Source: Candidatus Micrarchaeota archaeon (lineage in GTDB: Archaea > Micrarchaeota > Micrarchaeia > Anstonellales > Bilamarchaeaceae). Taken from it: a stretch of DNA of 64,000 bases. The stretch's first letter is position 1, and each line of letters opens with the position of its first letter. Below, piece by piece: positions 1-54,631 of the stretch. The stretch lies in assembly GCA_038046765.1 (NCBI GenBank), contig JBBSVN010000010.1:22172-86171 (forward strand), written 5' to 3'. The notes beneath the pieces are model-generated. The model did not search any database, had not been told where the DNA came from, and saw nothing but the letters and a program-made list of their open reading frames with translations. A program made the position numbers and the translations under genes.

Positions 1-614
1 TTTCAATCGGGTGCTTTCAGAGTATGGCTGATGAAATCGATTCGAGTGTATGCTCAAATCTTGGGGTTGATGCAGTTCGAAGAAGAACTGGCGGAGGCGC
101 AGTTTATCATGATAATTTAGGTGAAATTACCTATAGTGTAATTGCTCCTCAAAATATGTTCCCGTCAAACATTATTGAAAGCTACAAAATCATTTGCGGA
201 TGGATCATAGATAGTTTATCTCTACTTAATATTCAAGCGCAGTTCGTTCCGATAAATGATATTGTAAGCGGTGGGAAGAAAATTTCAGGAAATGCGCAGA
301 CAAGACGTGGCGGAGTTTTATTGCAGCATGGCACTATTCTTTACGATGTCGATGTTAAGAAGATGTTTTCACTATTAAAAGTTCCTAATGAAAAAATCAG
401 AGATAAAATGATTGCGACAGTTGAAGAACGGGTTACTAGCATAAAAAGAATAAAACCAGAAATTACAAGAGATGCTCTTTACCAAGCTTTAGTTAAAGGA
501 TTTATTAATGGTAAATCGTTCAGCTTTGGTTCTTTAACTGGGGAAGAAATTTCTCGTGCAAAAGAATTAGCAGAAACTAGGTACTCAAATAAAGAATGGA
601 ATTTTTCAAGATAA
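1..614 (+). CDS. lplA: Lipoate-protein ligase A family protein (5'-truncated by window edge)
   Basis: Motifs RRxTGGGAVYHD, KKISGNAQ, LQHGT; frame is open to the window start (SIGCFQS precedes the Met at 24). Confidence 0.88.
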   Translation, partial: SIGCFQSMADEIDSSVCSNLGVDAVRRRTGGGAVYHDNLGEITYSVIAPQNMFPSNIIESYKIICGWIIDSLSLLNIQAQFVPINDIVSGGKKISGNAQTRRGGVLLQHGTILYDVDVKKMFSLLKVPNEKIRDKMIATVEERVTSIKRIKPEITRDALYQALVKGFINGKSFSFGSLTGEEISRAKELAETRYSNKEWNFSR

Positions 615-679
615 ACTTCTATTTCGTTGTATTTTTCGCTTTCCGTTTTTTTTAAATGTTTGCCATTAAATAAATATTT

Positions 680-1096
680 ATGAACATCTTAAAAATATTT
701 TTAGGACTAGGATTAGTGATGGGCTTTGTGATGGCTCTAAGCGGAATCGCTTTTGCAGATGCAGTACCAGCAGTTTATTTGACCAACCCTCAAAATAACA
801 CAAATGGAACAGCAAACCCAGTAGATTTGCACTTTTTTGCAAATGATGTTGAAGACTCAACATTAACGTGCTATTTGTATGTTACTGATGAACTTTCTAG
901 CCTTGGATGGAACCCTGCTAACTATGTCTTTATTCATAGACAAACTATGAACAACGTACCTGTAAATCAAGTAAGTTACTTTACGTATACATTCCCATCG
1001 GCAGGTAGTTACGAATGGACGATTAGATGCGATGACTCATTTGGTAATCAAAAGTGGGCTGACTGGTTTGTAAGATCTGTTCATGTACAATCATAA
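680..1096 (+). CDS. Secreted small beta-rich (Ig-like) protein
   Basis: Signal peptide ending AFA; LTCYLY...GSYEWTIRCDDS pattern typical of archaeal surface Ig-like domains. Confidence 0.55.
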   Translation: MNILKIFLGLGLVMGFVMALSGIAFADAVPAVYLTNPQNNTNGTANPVDLHFFANDVEDSTLTCYLYVTDELSSLGWNPANYVFIHRQTMNNVPVNQVSYFTYTFPSAGSYEWTIRCDDSFGNQKWADWFVRSVHVQS

Positions 1097-1168
1097 TATT
1101 CTACATTTATTTTCTTTTTCTTTTTTTAATATCTTTATAAAAACGTTATTTTGGTTATCTTTGCCAAC

Positions 1169-1203
1169 TATATCCTAAACAATAACGTTAAAGTTTACGA
1201 TAT
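1169..1203. repeat. 35-bp palindromic direct repeat, upstream copy flanking ATPase 1234..2532
   Basis: TATATCCTAAACAATAACGTTAAAGTTTACGATAT identical to 2558-2592; imperfect similarity extends over 1165-1220 / 2554-2609. Confidence 0.95.
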
Positions 1204-1233
1204 GATTATAAACTATTACGTTTATATCTATTT

Positions 1234-2532
1234 ATGGAGAATGCACAACTGATGGAAATCCTCTTAGATTGGAATATCTGGAGAAAAGAAATTTATACGG
1301 GTATAGAACGAACTGATCAACTAGGAAAAATCGAAAAATTAGCTTCTTCAGAGCAGGTTACTGTTATCTCTGGCCCAAGAAGAGCTGGAAAATCTACGAT
1401 CATGCTTCAATACTTAAAATCCCTGCTTTCAAAAGGCATAAAAAAAGAACAAACGTTATTTGTTAATTTTGAGGATTCACGTTTCATTAATCTTGATGTG
1501 AACACTTTAAACAAATTATATGCTATCTATAAACAAAATATAAATCCTTCATCAAAGTCCTACATTTTTCTTGATGAAGTTCAAAAAGTTCTATCCTGGG
1601 AGCGCTTTGTGCGTGGATTACATGAAAGAAAGGAAGCAAATCTTTTTGTATCTGGTTCCAACTCGCAATTGCTAAGTTCGGAATACGGGACTTCGCTAAC
1701 TGGCAGGCACTTAGACTTAGAGATTTATCCTCTTTCTTTTAAAGAGTTTTTATCTTTTAATTCTATTAGTGTAGCTGACAACCTAGATTACGTCTCAAAA
1801 AGAGACACTCTCAAAAACTTATTTAACGAGTATCTTACTTATGGTGGTTTTCCGAAAGTTGTTCTTGAAAAAGAAAATAAAAAGGAATTACTTAAGACAT
1901 ACTTCGAGGATATCCTTTTTAAGGATATAATAAATAAATACAAGGTTCGGGAAAGCGAAAAGTTAAGCACACTTGCATATTACTATCTAAGTAATATTTC
2001 TTCTGCGCATACGATTAATAGTATAAGCAAGTTCATTCCTCTTTCTAATGATACACTTGATCGTTTTTCACAATATCTTAACCAAGCTTATTTACTATTT
2101 TTTGTTCCCAAATTTTCAACTTCTTTAAAAGAGCAAGCTATAAATGCAAAAAAAGTATATGCAATTGATACTGGTTTAAAAAATATGGCAGGTTTTAAGC
2201 ATAATGAAGACTTTGGAAAATTACTTGAAAATCTTGTTTTCCTTGAACTTAAAAGGCAAAAGAAAGAAATTTATTACTGGAAAGATCGTTATGATTACGA
2301 AGTGGATTTTGTTATTAAACAAGGTCTTAAGCCAAGTAATCTGATCCAGGTTTGCTGGGATTTATCAAATGAGAAGGTTAAGCAAAGAGAAACGCGATCA
2401 TTAGAACGGGCAATGGAAGAATACAAGTTAAATGAAGGCACAATAATTACGCAAGACTACGAGGGTGAAGAAAATATTGGCGGTAAAAAAATACTATATA
2501 AATCAGCAGTTAAATGGTTTTTAGGTATTTAA
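1234..2532 (+). CDS. AAA_14/DUF4143-type ATP-binding protein with C-terminal PD-(D/E)xK-like domain
   Basis: Walker A GPRRAGKS, Walker B IFLDEVQ, VSGS, GGFP, KKVYAIDTG, LLENLV, YEVDFV...IQV. Confidence 0.9.
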   Translation: MENAQLMEILLDWNIWRKEIYTGIERTDQLGKIEKLASSEQVTVISGPRRAGKSTIMLQYLKSLLSKGIKKEQTLFVNFEDSRFINLDVNTLNKLYAIYKQNINPSSKSYIFLDEVQKVLSWERFVRGLHERKEANLFVSGSNSQLLSSEYGTSLTGRHLDLEIYPLSFKEFLSFNSISVADNLDYVSKRDTLKNLFNEYLTYGGFPKVVLEKENKKELLKTYFEDILFKDIINKYKVRESEKLSTLAYYYLSNISSAHTINSISKFIPLSNDTLDRFSQYLNQAYLLFFVPKFSTSLKEQAINAKKVYAIDTGLKNMAGFKHNEDFGKLLENLVFLELKRQKKEIYYWKDRYDYEVDFVIKQGLKPSNLIQVCWDLSNEKVKQRETRSLERAMEEYKLNEGTIITQDYEGEENIGGKKILYKSAVKWFLGI

Positions 2533-2557
2533 CACAAAAAACGCCATACCTATCAAG

Positions 2558-2592
2558 TATATCCTAAACAATAACGTTAAAGTTTACGATAT
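2558..2592. repeat. 35-bp palindromic direct repeat, downstream copy
   Basis: Exact match to 1169-1203, 25 nt after the ATPase stop codon. Confidence 0.95.
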
Positions 2593-2644
2593 ACTTAGTA
2601 ACTATAACGCTAAAAATAAAATAAACGAATAAAAAGTAATATTT

Positions 2645-2902
2645 ATGCAACTTAAAATCCGTGTCCACCCAAATTCAATAAAATTTCGAATCCTTGAGAA
2701 GGAAGATGTTCTTCACGTTTACTTAGAGAGTGAACCCGAGAAAAACAAGGCAAATCTAGAATTAATAAAAAAACTCACAAAGCTTTTTGACACAGAAGTA
2801 ACTCTGGTCTCTGGATTAAAAAGCAGAGATAAAACGGTAAATATAAATATCTTGGAAGATGAGTGGAACACTATAAAACAAAAATTACTTGAAAAAAGGT
2901 GA
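2645..2902 (+). CDS. DUF167 (YggU) family protein
   Basis: IRVHPNS...PEKNKANLELIK...LVSGLKSRDK pattern, 85 aa. Confidence 0.85.
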   Translation: MQLKIRVHPNSIKFRILEKEDVLHVYLESEPEKNKANLELIKKLTKLFDTEVTLVSGLKSRDKTVNINILEDEWNTIKQKLLEKR

Positions 2903-2906
2903 ACAT

Positions 2907-3251
2907 ATGTTTATTTTTCAGTATGCATATACATCAAAACCCGAAGATTTATCAGTCAAGAAAGCACCTAAGGAATTAGTTAAAGATATGATAAAATTGG
3001 CACAATCTTCTACGTCTATAGTTTCTATAAATAGTCTTAAGGAAAGACAAAAAGATTTGGAAAAAGCAATTAAAGACTTAAACGCATTAATGAATACAAA
3101 AAACGAATTCGGGATTAATCCAAATAAGCCTATAAATGACATCATGCTAAAAGCAATGGCCGAACTTGTCCTTGCGTCAAGCCAAAATCAGGGAATGATT
3201 CGTGAACTTGAAAGAAAGACAAACGCTAAAGCGAAATTTTCAAAAAAATAA
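2907..3251 (+). CDS. Hypothetical helical protein
   Basis: ORF with GGTGA RBS just before ATG 2907; basic C-terminus. Confidence 0.5.
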   Translation: MFIFQYAYTSKPEDLSVKKAPKELVKDMIKLAQSSTSIVSINSLKERQKDLEKAIKDLNALMNTKNEFGINPNKPINDIMLKAMAELVLASSQNQGMIRELERKTNAKAKFSKK

Positions 3252-3254
3252 AAT

Positions 3255-4958
3255 CTAGCAGGTAAATATAAAAATCAATTTATCCTTCTCTTTTTTGTCT
3301 AACCTGCAAAATCCAAATCTTTCAAACTGTATCATATCTCCAATATCTAAATTCATGCAATCTGATTCACAGTATCCTTTTACAATTTCTAAACTATTCG
3401 GAATGTAGTTTTTATTTTCATCCACTAATTCTTTTGGAACCATAATTTCGCAATCTATTTTACTTTCTTCGCTTACCCACTGGATTTTCTTCTCAACCAT
3501 CGCATCTGGCATTTGTTCAACGGTAAGTTCTTTTTCTGATGTTATTAGTTTCGCATTGGACAAATCTTTTAGTCTAAATATCTCATTTTTCTTTAAACTT
3601 TCTGCATCGCTACTACTAATGTAAAGTGTATCATTTACTTTTATTTCTCTAAATCCGTAATCGGCTGATGGGTGCAATTTGATTTTAACATCGGTTTCTT
3701 TAGCATTTTTTATTTTCATTTTAACTGGATTACTTACAAAGAAATAATGCTTTGAAGTTGGTTCAATAAGTTTCTTATTTTCAACCAATAATCGTTCCCA
3801 AGTGGGTTCGCTTTCAACTTTACTTAAACCAAAAGAAAGTACAAAGTTCTTAATTGCTTGAGGTATTATTCCTCTTCTTCTTAGTGCAACCAGTGTTGGC
3901 AATCTCGGGTCATCCCAGCCCAAAACTTTTCCTTCTTTTACTAGCGGAACTAGTAAACGTTTGCTAATTGGAGCACCTTTAATTGCGAGCCTTGAAAACC
4001 CGATCATTTTTGGTGCAATTAAATCAAGTGCAGTAAATATAGCTTGATAGAGTTCATCTCGTAGTTCATATTCTTTTGAGCGCATTGGGTGAGTCGTTCC
4101 TTCAATTAAATCCATTATGCAAACAGCTAAATCATATCCAGGCCAAACTCTGTACTTTTCTGCTTGACGATAATGTTTTGCAATAATTATTCTTGCGAGC
4201 ATTGGATCTCGCATTACGGTGTTCAGTGCGCTTAAATTTCCTCTAAATCTAAGTATTGCATCTCCTTCGTTGTATTTGCCATTAAGCATATCTTTCCAGC
4301 GTAAGAGGTTGTCTTTTGGTTTTAACCCGTGGCATGCGCAAGGTTTCATTTCTTCTCTTAATTTACTTATTGTTTCTTGCTTGCAAGTACAAACATATGC
4401 CTTTTCTTTGGAAATAAGTTTTTCTGCGTATTCATAAATTTCTTGGATATGGTCGCTAGTATAATTTTCTTCGTCCCATTTTATCCCAAGCCAGGTTATT
4501 CCCTCTTTTATCCCTTCTACGTATTCTTGCGATTCTTTTTCGGGATTGGTGTCATCAAATCTTAAAACAAGTTTTCCTTGGTAATTTCGGGTAATTTCAT
4601 TAACTAAACATAATGCTTTAGCGTGTCCTATATGGGAGTATCCGCTAGGTTCAGGGGCAAATCTAGTTACAACTTTTCCAATCTCTGCTCCTTCTACTTC
4701 GAGTTCTTTTTTCTCCTCCTTCTTTTTCTCTTCAAAGTGATAATTTTTAAGTTCCTCCTCTACTGCTTCTTTGGAAAGCTTGTTTATTTCAGAAACGATT
4801 GCGTTTATTTTCTGCATTGTCCCTTTCATGTCTGTTTTGCAATCCGGCACTTCGCCTATAACCTTGCCTACAACCGAGCCTGCGCTGGCTTTTCCAAAAT
4901 CATGTGCATTCTTTAGTGCGTGTTTACGAATAATTTGGTCTAAATTAGTAGAAGTCAT
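3255..4958 (-). CDS. gltX: Glutamyl-tRNA synthetase (archaeal type)
   Basis: RFAPEPSG..HIGH, RFDDTNP, ISKR, GWDDPRLPTL, QFERFGF. Confidence 0.97.
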   Translation of the reverse strand: MTSTNLDQIIRKHALKNAHDFGKASAGSVVGKVIGEVPDCKTDMKGTMQKINAIVSEINKLSKEAVEEELKNYHFEEKKKEEKKELEVEGAEIGKVVTRFAPEPSGYSHIGHAKALCLVNEITRNYQGKLVLRFDDTNPEKESQEYVEGIKEGITWLGIKWDEENYTSDHIQEIYEYAEKLISKEKAYVCTCKQETISKLREEMKPCACHGLKPKDNLLRWKDMLNGKYNEGDAILRFRGNLSALNTVMRDPMLARIIIAKHYRQAEKYRVWPGYDLAVCIMDLIEGTTHPMRSKEYELRDELYQAIFTALDLIAPKMIGFSRLAIKGAPISKRLLVPLVKEGKVLGWDDPRLPTLVALRRRGIIPQAIKNFVLSFGLSKVESEPTWERLLVENKKLIEPTSKHYFFVSNPVKMKIKNAKETDVKIKLHPSADYGFREIKVNDTLYISSSDAESLKKNEIFRLKDLSNAKLITSEKELTVEQMPDAMVEKKIQWVSEESKIDCEIMVPKELVDENKNYIPNSLEIVKGYCESDCMNLDIGDMIQFERFGFCRLDKKEKDKLIFIFTC

Positions 4959-51718: not shown

Positions 51719-51795
51719 TTACATTTTAGTAAATCCATTCGTCAAGATGTATACATTATAGTAAATCAATTTGCTAAAATGTAATAAATTAGCTA
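51719..51795. repeat. 77-bp direct repeat (two tandem 32-bp palindromes), downstream copy of ATPase 51804..53009
   Basis: 71/77 identical to 53042-53118. Confidence 0.95.
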
Positions 51796-51803
51796 GTTTT
51801 TGC

Positions 51804-53009
51804 CTATTTTTTATCTTTTTCTACTAAACCAACCATAAACAGAGGTCTTTTCATTTCTTCGATTACTCCAGGATGCGTTAATATAATCTGTTTCTTTGCT
51901 TTAAAACCTTTAAACTGGCTTGCGCTTTTATTTACTCCGCCTATTTCAAAAACAGTTTCCCCAATCAAATAATCAGGTATCTTTTCTCCTCTTTCTGATT
52001 TTAAATAGTTTATTTCAAAATCAAGATTCTGTATCGCTTCAGCAAAAAAATCTTCTCTTATTGCGCCTATGCATTCATCGTAATTTTTATAAAGCAGACG
52101 ATAAGGTAATGCAAGCAGTATCTTAGGTTCCTTTAGGACATTTGTTCCTTTAGGAAAAATGCATCTTAAAACAAATGTTTTTTCAAGCACTGTAGCATAT
52201 TTCTCTACCTTATACTTTGTTGAGCCAATATTTTTTGCAACATTTGTGTAGCTAGTATCTTCAACAGATGATTTACCAAGAAATGAGATCATTTTTCTTA
52301 CTTCTACAGCTTCTTCAGAAGTTACCCTCCCGCCTAAAACTAAATCATTTCTTATAATTGTTTCTAGGATGTTGAAAAATAAAGATATTGTTTCTATTTT
52401 TCCCATCGTAAAAGGATAATTCCTTCCTTTTAAGTATAATTCAAAAAGAGGTTCTAGGTGTAAAATTTTTCCATAATATTTTTTTGCGATTTCCATATCC
52501 GCTAAATCTTCAATGTTGAACTTTGGCAAAATTTCATCTTTTTCAAAATAAATAAATTCCCTAAATGAAAACGGGTGTACCTTTATTATCCTCATTCTTC
52601 TTGAAAGGTCTGCAGATAACTCATGAAGGGAAATCGAAGAAGAACTAGTGCAAACTACGTTTATTTTTAAAAAGTCATAAATTCTTTTTAATTCAACTTC
52701 AAAGTTTGGATAGTTGTGTATTTCATCTATAAATAGTAATTTTGTATCTTTTTCTTCCAGCTCCTTTGCTAGTTCAAATAAATTAGTATCGATACCACCT
52801 GTTTCCAAAGATACATAAAAAGAAGATTCAGTTTCGTATAAAAGCTGCTTTAGTATAGTTGTTTTTCCAGCCCCCCTTGATCCGATCAATGCGATAAATG
52901 TTCTTTCTGGCAGGTATTTTTTAATGTCTTCATAAACAAATCTTTTTTTTGTATATGTTACACCTTCTGCTCGTGCTTTAGCATTTAGTTCATTTAGTAT
53001 CGGTTGCAT
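51804..53009 (-). CDS. AAA_14-type ATP-binding protein with C-terminal PD-(D/E)xK-like domain
   Basis: Walker A GSRGAGKT, Walker B LFIDEIH, ADLSRR, PFSFREF, IPDYL...FEIGG. Confidence 0.88.
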   Translation of the reverse strand: MQPILNELNAKARAEGVTYTKKRFVYEDIKKYLPERTFIALIGSRGAGKTTILKQLLYETESSFYVSLETGGIDTNLFELAKELEEKDTKLLFIDEIHNYPNFEVELKRIYDFLKINVVCTSSSSISLHELSADLSRRMRIIKVHPFSFREFIYFEKDEILPKFNIEDLADMEIAKKYYGKILHLEPLFELYLKGRNYPFTMGKIETISLFFNILETIIRNDLVLGGRVTSEEAVEVRKMISFLGKSSVEDTSYTNVAKNIGSTKYKVEKYATVLEKTFVLRCIFPKGTNVLKEPKILLALPYRLLYKNYDECIGAIREDFFAEAIQNLDFEINYLKSERGEKIPDYLIGETVFEIGGVNKSASQFKGFKAKKQIILTHPGVIEEMKRPLFMVGLVEKDKK

Positions 53010-53041: not shown

Positions 53042-53118
53042 TTACATTTTAGTAAATCCATTTTCCAAGATGCATACATTATAGTAAATTAATTTTCTAA
53101 AATGTAATAAATTAGCTA
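53042..53118. repeat. 77-bp direct repeat, upstream copy
   Basis: Matches 51719-51795; sits between the herA stop and the ATPase TATA box. Confidence 0.95.
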
Positions 53119-53119
53119 A

Positions 53120-54631
53120 TTATAAGAATGCTTCAACCTGTTTCTCCTTTTTTACCTTAGTTTCTTCAAACCTTTTAGCCATATCTCTAAGTGGTGCGCC
53201 TTTTTCTCGCTTAACTGATTTTCGTTGTCTAACTGATAAGAAAATCGGGTGATTAACTGCTTCTCCAACAACAATTGCTTCGCCCGTCTTTAATCCCGTA
53301 ATGCTCTTAGCAACCGTTGAATCAATACCCTCGCTACTCATTTGAATGTGATCTAAATCATTTGGGTTAGTTACACGTAAAATAATGTGCGTAGCGCACT
53401 GCGAAAGTGCAGTTGTACTTAAATTAACTGGACGCTGAGAGATTAAGCAAAGTGAAGCGCCAAATTTTCTTCCTTCTCGCGCGATCGTTTCAATTATACT
53501 TCTTGAAATTGCTTCGCTAGCTTCTGCTTTTTCACGTGCAAAGTTATGCGCTTCTTCAATAAGTAATAAAAATGGCGGAATCCTTTCTTTTTTCCTTAAA
53601 TTAAATAACTTTCTTCCAAGTAAAGAAACTAAAATTTGTTTTTTTCTTAAGCTATCAACGCTTGAAAAATCTAAAATTAAAAGTTTACCTGGCACAACCT
53701 GTTTTATTAGGCTTGGATTTTGTTCATCCTTAGAAATAAATCTGTATCTATGAATTTCACGAAGCGCCCTTTTCAATGTTTTTTTGACAACATCTGTTGA
53801 TATATCACTATCATCAATAGCTGCAATGAGTTCGGAAAATCCGTAGTTTACTTCATGCTCTCGCTTACACTGCTGCATTGCATATCGTAAAAGTTCTTTT
53901 TGTGGCGGGGATAAATTTGGTAACCACTCTTCAAGCATTTCTGGGGCGATTTTTGAAAGTGGAATACGCATGTCTTTTACATCAACTATTTCGGTATTGG
54001 ATCCGTACTTTTGGTCATACTTAAATCCAATGTATTCGCCGTGCATATCGATTACGATTGTTGCAATTCTACCTTCGCCTTCTTTAATTTCTAAAAGTTC
54101 TTCCATTAAAACTGATGATAAATGTGATTTACCTGCCCCAGACATTGCTAATATCGCTAAGTGCTTCTGAAGTAGCCTCGTCAAATCAATATTCGCTAGC
54201 GTATCATGATGTTGTAAGTTTCCTAAATAAAGTCCGTCCGCAGAAAATCCCAAGAAATTCTTTAGAATTTCTGATTCGCATATCTCAACTTCATTTCCAG
54301 GCGAGGGCGGAAGATAACATCTGGTAAATTTACTCTCATCTTTAGCACCAAGTACTCGAACTTCCGCTACAGAATAATCCCAGTTTGTTGTAGGAAAATC
54401 CATTTTTATACTACCCTGGTTCTCATAAGTGGAAATCGTTTCAGCCCGTTCAAAATAACGATTTGATCTATATATCTCTTTAATCATTCCAAATATTATT
54501 CCATTCTCGTTTTTTGTCTGAACGTATTGTCCTTTTTTGACATTTGATTTAGAATTAGTAATGACGAAAGCAAATTCACTAGTCGAAGGAGATTCTTCTG
54601 TTGAAACTACTGTACCTATTGCATGTGACAT
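53120..54631 (-). CDS. herA: HerA-family ATPase/helicase
   Basis: N-terminal HAS-barrel-like region, HLAILAMSGAGKS, DMHGEY, IEEAHNF, REGRKFG, SQRP. Confidence 0.88.
   Translation of the reverse strand: MSHAIGTVVSTEESPSTSEFAFVITNSKSNVKKGQYVQTKNENGIIFGMIKEIYRSNRYFERAETISTYENQGSIKMDFPTTNWDYSVAEVRVLGAKDESKFTRCYLPPSPGNEVEICESEILKNFLGFSADGLYLGNLQHHDTLANIDLTRLLQKHLAILAMSGAGKSHLSSVLMEELLEIKEGEGRIATIVIDMHGEYIGFKYDQKYGSNTEIVDVKDMRIPLSKIAPEMLEEWLPNLSPPQKELLRYAMQQCKREHEVNYGFSELIAAIDDSDISTDVVKKTLKRALREIHRYRFISKDEQNPSLIKQVVPGKLLILDFSSVDSLRKKQILVSLLGRKLFNLRKKERIPPFLLLIEEAHNFAREKAEASEAISRSIIETIAREGRKFGASLCLISQRPVNLSTTALSQCATHIILRVTNPNDLDHIQMSSEGIDSTVAKSITGLKTGEAIVVGEAVNHPIFLSVRQRKSVKREKGAPLRDMAKRFEETKVKKEKQVEAFL

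Follow-up and report, generated by a model that had tools for sequence, protein, structure and literature searches.

Direct repeats around AAA_14 and Schlafen-type genes in a Micrarchaeota genome: candidate operators duplicated at both ends of one-gene cassettes

Results

A repeat pair brackets an AAA_14 ATPase gene

We analysed a 64,000-nt stretch (the window) of the genome of a Candidatus Micrarchaeota archaeon (assembly GCA_038046765.1, contig JBBSVN010000010.1, here C10:22172-86171), a genome of 1.5 Mb with 34% G+C in 20 contigs. Near the start of the window (positions given without a contig name are window positions) a gene on the forward strand coding for a 432-aa ATPase with AAA_14 and DUF4143 domains (1234-2532; COG1373 family, PADLOC PDC-S01, identified by domain and profile matches and a structure model) lies between two copies of a direct repeat, at 1165-1220 and 2554-2609, which share 89% identity over 56 nt. 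A first-pass annotation made from the letters alone had reported identical 35-nt copies at 1169-1203 and 2558-2592, and these were confirmed as the cores of the longer repeat; their spacing gives a unit length of 1389 nt. Five of the six mismatches of the 56-nt pair fall in its weaker right end, and it is this right end that matches the degenerate half-site proposed 33 bp further on, which is not demonstrable as a separate site. An inverted half-site proposed at 1142-1150 was not supported: this 9-mer resembles the dyad centre at chance level only (E 0.79). The 34-nt dyad proposed within the core was recovered at 1170-1203, of the type TATCS-N22-SGATA, with 14 of 17 arm positions complementary, a value equalled by 2.2% of 400 length-matched intergenic segments. 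We read the upstream copy as a putative operator. Folding of both copies was better than that of shuffled sequence (z -3.9 and -2.0), and a search of Rfam over 600-3400 of the window gave no matches at E up to 1.

The repeat is restricted to this locus within the genome. With up to three mismatches the 35-mer core had exactly two sites in 1.5 Mb and none in the control, and no third copy of the 56-mer rose above chance-level short matches. Upstream, a TATA-like box (TTATAAA, 1206-1212, forward strand) lies 2 nt past the repeat core and 25 nt before the ATG, a spacing that fits a promoter giving a leaderless transcript; this reading leans on established archaeal promoter geometry. Downstream, the second copy starts 21 nt past the stop codon and its TATA-like part is degenerate. 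The neighbouring genes are ordinary, coding for a lipoate ligase, a small secreted protein, a DUF167 protein and a glutamyl-tRNA synthetase (GluRS). At the 3' end of the GluRS gene, summed contig depth rose several-fold over about 41 nt (3289-3329) in each of the four runs, with loose contig ends on both sides and an A>G change at 3309 common to all runs; this suggests that other organisms of the samples share a short element with this one.

The encoded protein is a STAND-like ATPase with a nuclease-like tail

The 432-aa protein matched AAA_14 over residues 40-173 (125.3 bits against a Pfam cut-off of 27) and DUF4143 over residues 230-374 (81.9 bits against 28.1), and the PADLOC PDC-S01 profile matched it with E 8.6e-125 over profile positions 9-407 of 412. 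As far as the accessible text of the source goes, PDC-S01 is, by frequency, the fourth of the defence candidates in prokaryotes, enriched in archaea and of unproven function, with experimental validation pending for most such candidates (PMC12988326). By these matches the protein is a candidate antiviral ATPase. Walker A and Walker B are intact, with G47, G52, K53, D114 and E115 invariant in 30 homologues, as are E356 and D358, candidate PD-(D/E)xK residues of the C-terminal domain. The third nuclease motif reads QVC in the protein's clade and EVK in one paralogue, and a match to Mrr_cat reached 17.8 bits, under the cut-off of 21.

A structure model built on 30 homologues was confident (pLDDT 91.7, pTM 0.91) and shows a predicted NTPase with a helical domain and a winged helix (approximately residues 19-321), followed by a restriction-endonuclease-like C-terminal domain. 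The nuclease-like C-terminal 100 or so residues are the domain listed for DUF4143 (PMC3424549). Residues 19-321 of the model superposed on the archaeal ATPases 2qen (Z 17.7) and 2fna (Z 17.2) and also on the NTPase/helical/winged-helix core of STAND proteins. Superposition on Orc1/Cdc6 was weaker (Z 12.7-13.4, AAA+ part only), and the fold matches included CED-4 and NLR proteins as much as Orc1/Cdc6. A sequence search of the PDB gave no matches to the protein and Pfam gave no ORC/Cdc6 match; membership of the Orc1/Cdc6 family was ruled out by this missing Pfam match and the better fold matches elsewhere.

Eleven genes of two unrelated families share the layout

We compared the two flanks of each of 1191 non-overlapping open reading frames (ORFs), all of 150 aa or more, in search of a direct repeat. 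Twelve ORFs scored 26 or more, the 432-aa ATPase gene included, with the next best at 19, and 11 of the 12 were ATPase + winged-helix genes of two unrelated families. Eight are among the 11 strong AAA_14 matches of the genome, and three are among its four genes of a family with SLFN_AlbA_2, HATPase_c_4 and a C-terminal winged helix (Schlafen/GHKL, Schlafen-type below). The generality that the first-pass annotation had drawn from two cases in the window was thus borne out, with 11 of the 15 ATPase/winged-helix genes of the genome repeat-flanked. All 11 repeat pairs differ in sequence, the paralogues being only 22-46% identical, and third copies of any of the 11 repeats amounted to short chance-level matches across the genome. 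One half-site of the paralogue C4a resembles that of its nearest paralogue, C10b. The twelfth ORF (C4:83681-84540) codes for a 173-aa protein that is not an ATPase, and its 64-nt repeat, which holds a ribosome-binding-like stretch and a start codon, probably belongs to a tandem gene duplication.

The geometry was the same in all 11 cassettes. The upstream copy stops 2-5 nt before a TATA-like box that lies about 25-30 nt from the ATG, and the downstream copy starts 0-33 nt past the stop codon or overlaps it. A dyad or direct sub-repeat at or above the 98th percentile of intergenic controls was found in 5 of the 11 repeats. In five cassettes, of this and related genomes (C2, L101, L103, L112 and L223), the ORF terminates within the repeat, as expected if the unit were circularly permuted.

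The second cassette of the window, also proposed from the letters alone, stood up to analysis. Its 77-nt repeat copies (51719-51795 downstream and 53042-53118 upstream, 92% identity) flank a 401-aa ATPase gene on the reverse strand (51804-53009) that exceeds the Pfam cut-off for AAA_14 and falls below it for DUF4143 (23.7 bits against 28.1). The downstream copy contains three 14-nt half-sites, two direct and 33 nt apart and one inverted, the upstream copy ends a few nt before a TATA-like box, and both copies fold better than shuffles (z -5.0 and -3.5). The 401-aa protein belongs to a divergent AAA_14 subfamily in which six of eight tree members are repeat-flanked. In an order-wide sample of the subfamily a repeat was found in 10 of 29, of operator type in four (L217, L223, L224 and L227), and the operators of these four can be aligned with operators of cassettes from our genome. 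A HerA-type helicase gene (DUF87 + HAS barrel; 53120-54631, reverse strand) begins directly beside the upstream repeat, and a xanthine/uracil-type permease gene stops 39 nt before the downstream repeat.

Site type follows the protein across genomes

The type of site goes with the protein. An upstream TATCS-N22-SGATA dyad was present at 5 of the 12 closest homologues of the 432-aa ATPase (the gene itself, L015, L016, L131 and L075) and at none of 77 other AAA_14 genes, and its length was 32 nt in all five where spacers of 6-30 were permitted; the pattern was chosen after four of the five cases had been seen. Genome-wide, the loose pattern is no commoner than chance: 8 sites at N22, with other spacings giving 1-8. 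Among the five dyad-bearing homologues, a downstream copy accompanied the dyad at the gene itself and at L016 only.

In the Schlafen-type family, 14 of 29 ORFs of family relatives had flanking repeats (E up to 0.001), and 10 of 27 lay above the 99th percentile of mismatched upstream/downstream pairs. Ten cassettes carry two tandem and two inverted half-sites (TGGCA, AGGAAC or TGGAAA) approximately one helical turn apart. These ten form one clade (support 96/97) in which every member is flanked; outside this clade repeats were found at 6 of 18 proteins and were of other kinds. Neighbouring genes are not shared between the ten loci, one weak pair excepted. Repeats of sister cassettes whose proteins share 60% and 55% identity could be aligned, with invariant half-sites, so that the sites are homologous despite different genomic contexts. 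Spacers differ between sister cassettes and are the same within one cassette, suggesting that the copies within a cassette evolve in concert. Operators could likewise be aligned between cassettes of different genera in four groups (A1, A2, A4 and A5).

Two further observations concern these relatives. At L015, L027, L191 and other loci, ATPase and Schlafen-type cassettes adjoin, two or three in a row and on either strand, which suggests insertion hot spots or small islands. At L110 (G056:C1), a 131-nt, 95% identical, G+C-rich repeat (1244-1374 and 2919-3049) lies about 70-85 nt from the ends of a Schlafen-type gene; it is far longer than the half-site arrays and unlike them.

That repeat type tracks protein clade across genomes and contexts argues that the repeats are not random target duplications. 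A generic insertion with long target duplication, in which the repeat would be ordinary host sequence at the insertion point and unrelated to the protein, would account for direct repeats of more than 30 bp, the missing adjoining mobility gene and an empty site with one copy (below). It would also suit L155 (G019:C14) and L222 (G034:C13), where 67- and 70-nt repeats flank AAA_14 genes and look like duplicated ends of coding sequence; the L155 copies differ mostly at every third position. It is at odds with the co-inheritance of repeat and protein, with the homology of the repeats of related cassettes in four groups, with repeats richer in dyads and sub-repeats than intergenic controls and with an upstream copy that always abuts the TATA box. 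We regard it as improbable for the set as a whole; it survives only for the coding-end class.

The half-site arrays also bear on a reading in which the copies would act as hairpins of structured DNA or RNA, in the manner of attC sites or terminators, with a recombinase of the host or of a third party, in place of the encoded protein, as the recognising agent. Better folding than shuffles agrees with this, although folding is expected of any palindrome, and a common outside agent could explain the same layout around two unrelated families. Tandem half-sites about one helical turn apart and clade-specific words suit a protein on duplex DNA better, however, the upstream copy lies outside the predicted transcript and Rfam gave no match. 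We consider hairpin recognition very improbable indeed.

Copies differ in spacers and keep their half-sites

In some pairs the two copies have diverged in a patterned way. Seven of nine central spacer positions differ between the L120 copies with the half-sites kept, and the same was seen by eye at L016. Across eight Schlafen pairs, fewer differences fell in the repeated words than expected (18 against 24.8, P 0.003), in a word-based test whose marking is too permissive in AT-rich DNA. Both copies thus appear to be under selection in at least one pair, as far as these comparisons suggest.

Such conservation is what would be predicted if both copies were working operators acting by looping, or as a roadblock against read-through into a toxic gene, and no mobility were involved; the constant geometry agrees with this as well. 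Selection for binding would, however, leave unexplained why spacers are the same within most pairs yet different between sisters, most homologues manage without a downstream copy, and the solo sites and the empty-site contig described next count against a purely regulatory pair. We find that reading hard to credit, about as much so as generic target duplication.

An apparent empty site and solo sites

Run X3 comes from a further sample of the same study. One of its contigs, 1899 nt long, aligned to 690-1098 of the window and then to 2554-3977. The 66 letters between the aligned parts equal the length of 1099-1164 and are partly repeat-masked, so that in this layout the 1389-nt unit is absent and one repeat copy is left. 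The contig appears to be an empty site joining the flanks over a single repeat copy. Contigs of the ATPase gene occur in the same run at similar depth. The X3 contig stems from a k=31 assembly at approximately 10x with coverage gaps beside both repeat copies, and was not called as a joint. From 2554 onwards its single mismatch lies elsewhere, so that at repeat position 4 it seemingly has the right-hand variant, a point in favour of a real allele. Runs X4, X5 and X6 gave short scattered contigs, and the parts of the window they leave uncovered are uninformative. Synteny offered no empty-site comparison, the GluRS neighbourhood not being conserved in 29 family-level relatives (closest 65% identical), and the best metagenome orthologue of the 432-aa ATPase among 27 loci was 50% identical. 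Related genomes had between 0 and 38 matches to the query each.

Solo copies of the repeats had been proposed as excision scars. The 35-mer of the 432-aa cassette gave none, occurring only at its two flanks; a four-half-site array of Schlafen type (GGCA/TGCC) does stand alone, in 38 nt at C8:51942-51979 (L230), where the reversed-genome control gave none. A hypothetical gene and a MiaB-like radical-SAM gene converge here with a 56-nt gap between their 3' ends, and the array sits in this gap; its span equals that of the array flanking the Schlafen-type gene on C7. An array in the opposite order (TGCC TGCC GGCA GGCA, as at L099) was observed at C5:29218-29258 (L229; none in the control), about 94 nt upstream of a 452-aa ORF for which Pfam gave no match. 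A 32-nt dyad (TATCGG...CCGATA, the type of L075 and L131) was also observed at C6:29455-29486, in a 458-nt gap between convergent genes and away from any ATPase gene; this may be a further solo site, with the reservation that the loose pattern occurs genome-wide at chance frequency.

These sites bring in protein-directed insertion, in which a cassette that lacks a site of its own would be placed by its protein at a chromosomal landing pad, staggered cuts and fill-in duplicating the bound site. The repeat boundaries almost coincide with the boundaries of the dyads and arrays, the empty-site contig has one copy, seemingly of right-hand type throughout, one solo site is at a place where a promoter would not be expected, and the family has a nuclease-like tail. 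Against this, a specificity of 20-30 nt finds no chance target in 1.5 Mb, so that landing pads would have to stem from earlier cassettes; homologues without a downstream copy keep the upstream site at the promoter; the activity would be needed in two unrelated protein families; and the third catalytic motif reads QVC here and EVK in a paralogue. We consider protein-directed insertion rather unlikely. A cruciform-cutting model for duplication of palindromes was set aside, being unneeded for non-palindromic repeats.

Discussion

Probable operators, duplicated at both ends of a one-gene cassette

The reading that we favour, and hold to be probable if only slightly so, is that the repeat in each case is an operator cognate to the gene, and that its duplication has placed a copy at either end of a one-gene cassette. 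The module would consist of an operator, a TATA box with a leaderless ORF, and a second operator copy, and would encode an ATPase of STAND/Orc-like type that has a winged helix and ends in a nuclease-like tail. This protein would bind its own repeat and most likely repress its own promoter at the upstream copy, since that copy abuts the BRE/TATA position. The downstream copy would be a duplicate of the operator that gives the module direct-repeat ends. Recombination between the copies could then remove the gene and leave one solo operator, and re-entry at a solo site could follow from a single crossover with a circle that carries one operator, or from a protein-directed event. It seems that this layout allows loss and regain of the gene as a unit; these loss and gain steps are supported by the X3 contig and the solo sites. 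The same layout may have evolved, or be propagated, in the unrelated Schlafen/GHKL/winged-helix family of the same archaeal lineage.

Several results weigh against this reading. In STAND NTPases the winged helix usually has a role in oligomerisation and not in DNA binding. Two of the 11 repeats (C4a and C5) have no internal symmetry, the coding-end repeats of L155 and L222 form a second class unlike the operator type and consistent with generic target duplication, and in seven AAA_14 pairs the repeated words held about as many differences as expected (21 against 21.6, P 0.47). The X3 contig is possibly a false path through the 35-nt repeat, and if it is real, its right-hand variant is unexpected from a crossover inside the identical core. 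Flanking repeats are also uncommon in relatives. They were found at 13 of 85 AAA_14 genes (E up to 0.001; at least 40 nt in five of the 13), at none of 19 genes tested in G024, a genome with 38 matches, and at 1 of approximately 18 metagenome homologues. Close homologues lacking any flanking repeat had been named beforehand as evidence against a general system, and such homologues exist: a downstream copy was not found at L013, L014, L015, L075 or L129-L131. Given that most close homologues have the upstream site only, the downstream copy is facultative and not a fixed part of the system. At repeat-less genes, motif sharing between upstream and downstream flanks was no different from that of mismatched pairs. 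The earlier proposal that each ATPase paralogue travels with its own cognate sites therefore stands in part: the site type is inherited with the protein while contexts differ, and the pair itself is absent in most close homologues.

A stronger version would make the cassettes a new kind of autonomous one-gene mobile element, in which the STAND/Orc-like ATPase or the Schlafen/GHKL protein recognises the end arrays and itself drives excision, re-insertion or replication of a 1.3-kb circle. We think this unlikely; if it were so, PDC-S01 would be at root a selfish minimal replicon or transposon with sequence-specific ends.

If instead the repeats are cognate sites as favoured here, the DNA ligand of each protein would be in hand, with dozens of natural specificity variants from which to derive a recognition code. 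The swings in copy number among the tiny DPANN genomes would be explained, and the repeats would suggest how individual defence genes could be switched into and out of a population by simple recombination. That the unrelated Schlafen/GHKL family has the same layout points to a common rule for one-gene modules.

Comparison with known systems

The closest published description is that of insertion with long target duplication by restriction-modification genes (Furuta, Abe and Kobayashi 2010), and as far as its accessible text goes this describes unique direct repeats of more than 30 bp with no linked integrase or transposase (PMC2853133). According to the same text, the empty allele has one copy, excision and amplification via the repeats were proposed, the repeat is taken as target sequence of the host, and the screen, which required repeats of more than 30 bp and an insert of less than 20 kb, yielded no archaeal case (PMC2853133). 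The 432-aa cassette falls within these sizes, with 35 nt exact, 56 nt at 89% and a unit of 1389 nt, and it shares with the cases in that text a defence-type gene, flanking direct repeats of more than 30 bp and no linked integrase or transposase (PMC2853133). It differs from them in that here the repeat is structured, abuts the promoter and is of a type inherited with the protein across genomes; for the operator class this co-inheritance contradicts the target-sequence account. The system had been called possibly undescribed. Long direct repeats around defence genes were in fact already published for restriction-modification systems, going by that text (PMC2853133), and the description as new holds for PDC-S01 genes in so far as a full-text literature search, within the text open to it, found no published account of the regulation or spread of PDC-S01, DUF4143 or COG1373 genes.

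Other systems have a gene beside its own sites. In the P1 and mini-F replicons, the gene of a DNA-binding NTPase or initiator has its own iteron arrays upstream, where they overlap the promoter and allow autorepression, and downstream. By analogy the cassettes may be compared with these, with the difference that here the copies are near-identical and direct, the elements are chromosomal and of 1.3-1.4 kb, and nothing points to replication. Archaeal Orc1/Cdc6 genes have dyad-like origin recognition boxes of about 20-35 bp repeated beside the gene, and the Orc1/Cdc6 structures 2qby, 2v1u and 1fnn are among the fold matches of our model. An AAA+ module with a winged helix and repeated dyad-like boxes beside the gene are common to both; here there is an extra nuclease-like domain, and the boxes flank the gene and not an unwinding element.

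In the lambdoid immunity region the repressor gene lies between OL and OR and is exchanged between genomes as a specificity module. A gene bracketed by candidate cognate arrays would be the analogous feature here, whereas the lambdoid region is of phage, has several genes and is bounded by inverted promoter-operator regions where the present copies are direct duplicates. Integron cassettes, finally, consist of a single ORF and one attC (an imperfect palindrome of about 60-140 nt, variable), have a circular intermediate with one site, and depend on an attI platform and the IntI integrase. The cassette neighbourhoods examined showed no integrase, and no genome search for a recombinase was made. 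The cassettes described here differ from those of integrons in carrying the same site on both sides and a promoter of their own in each cassette.

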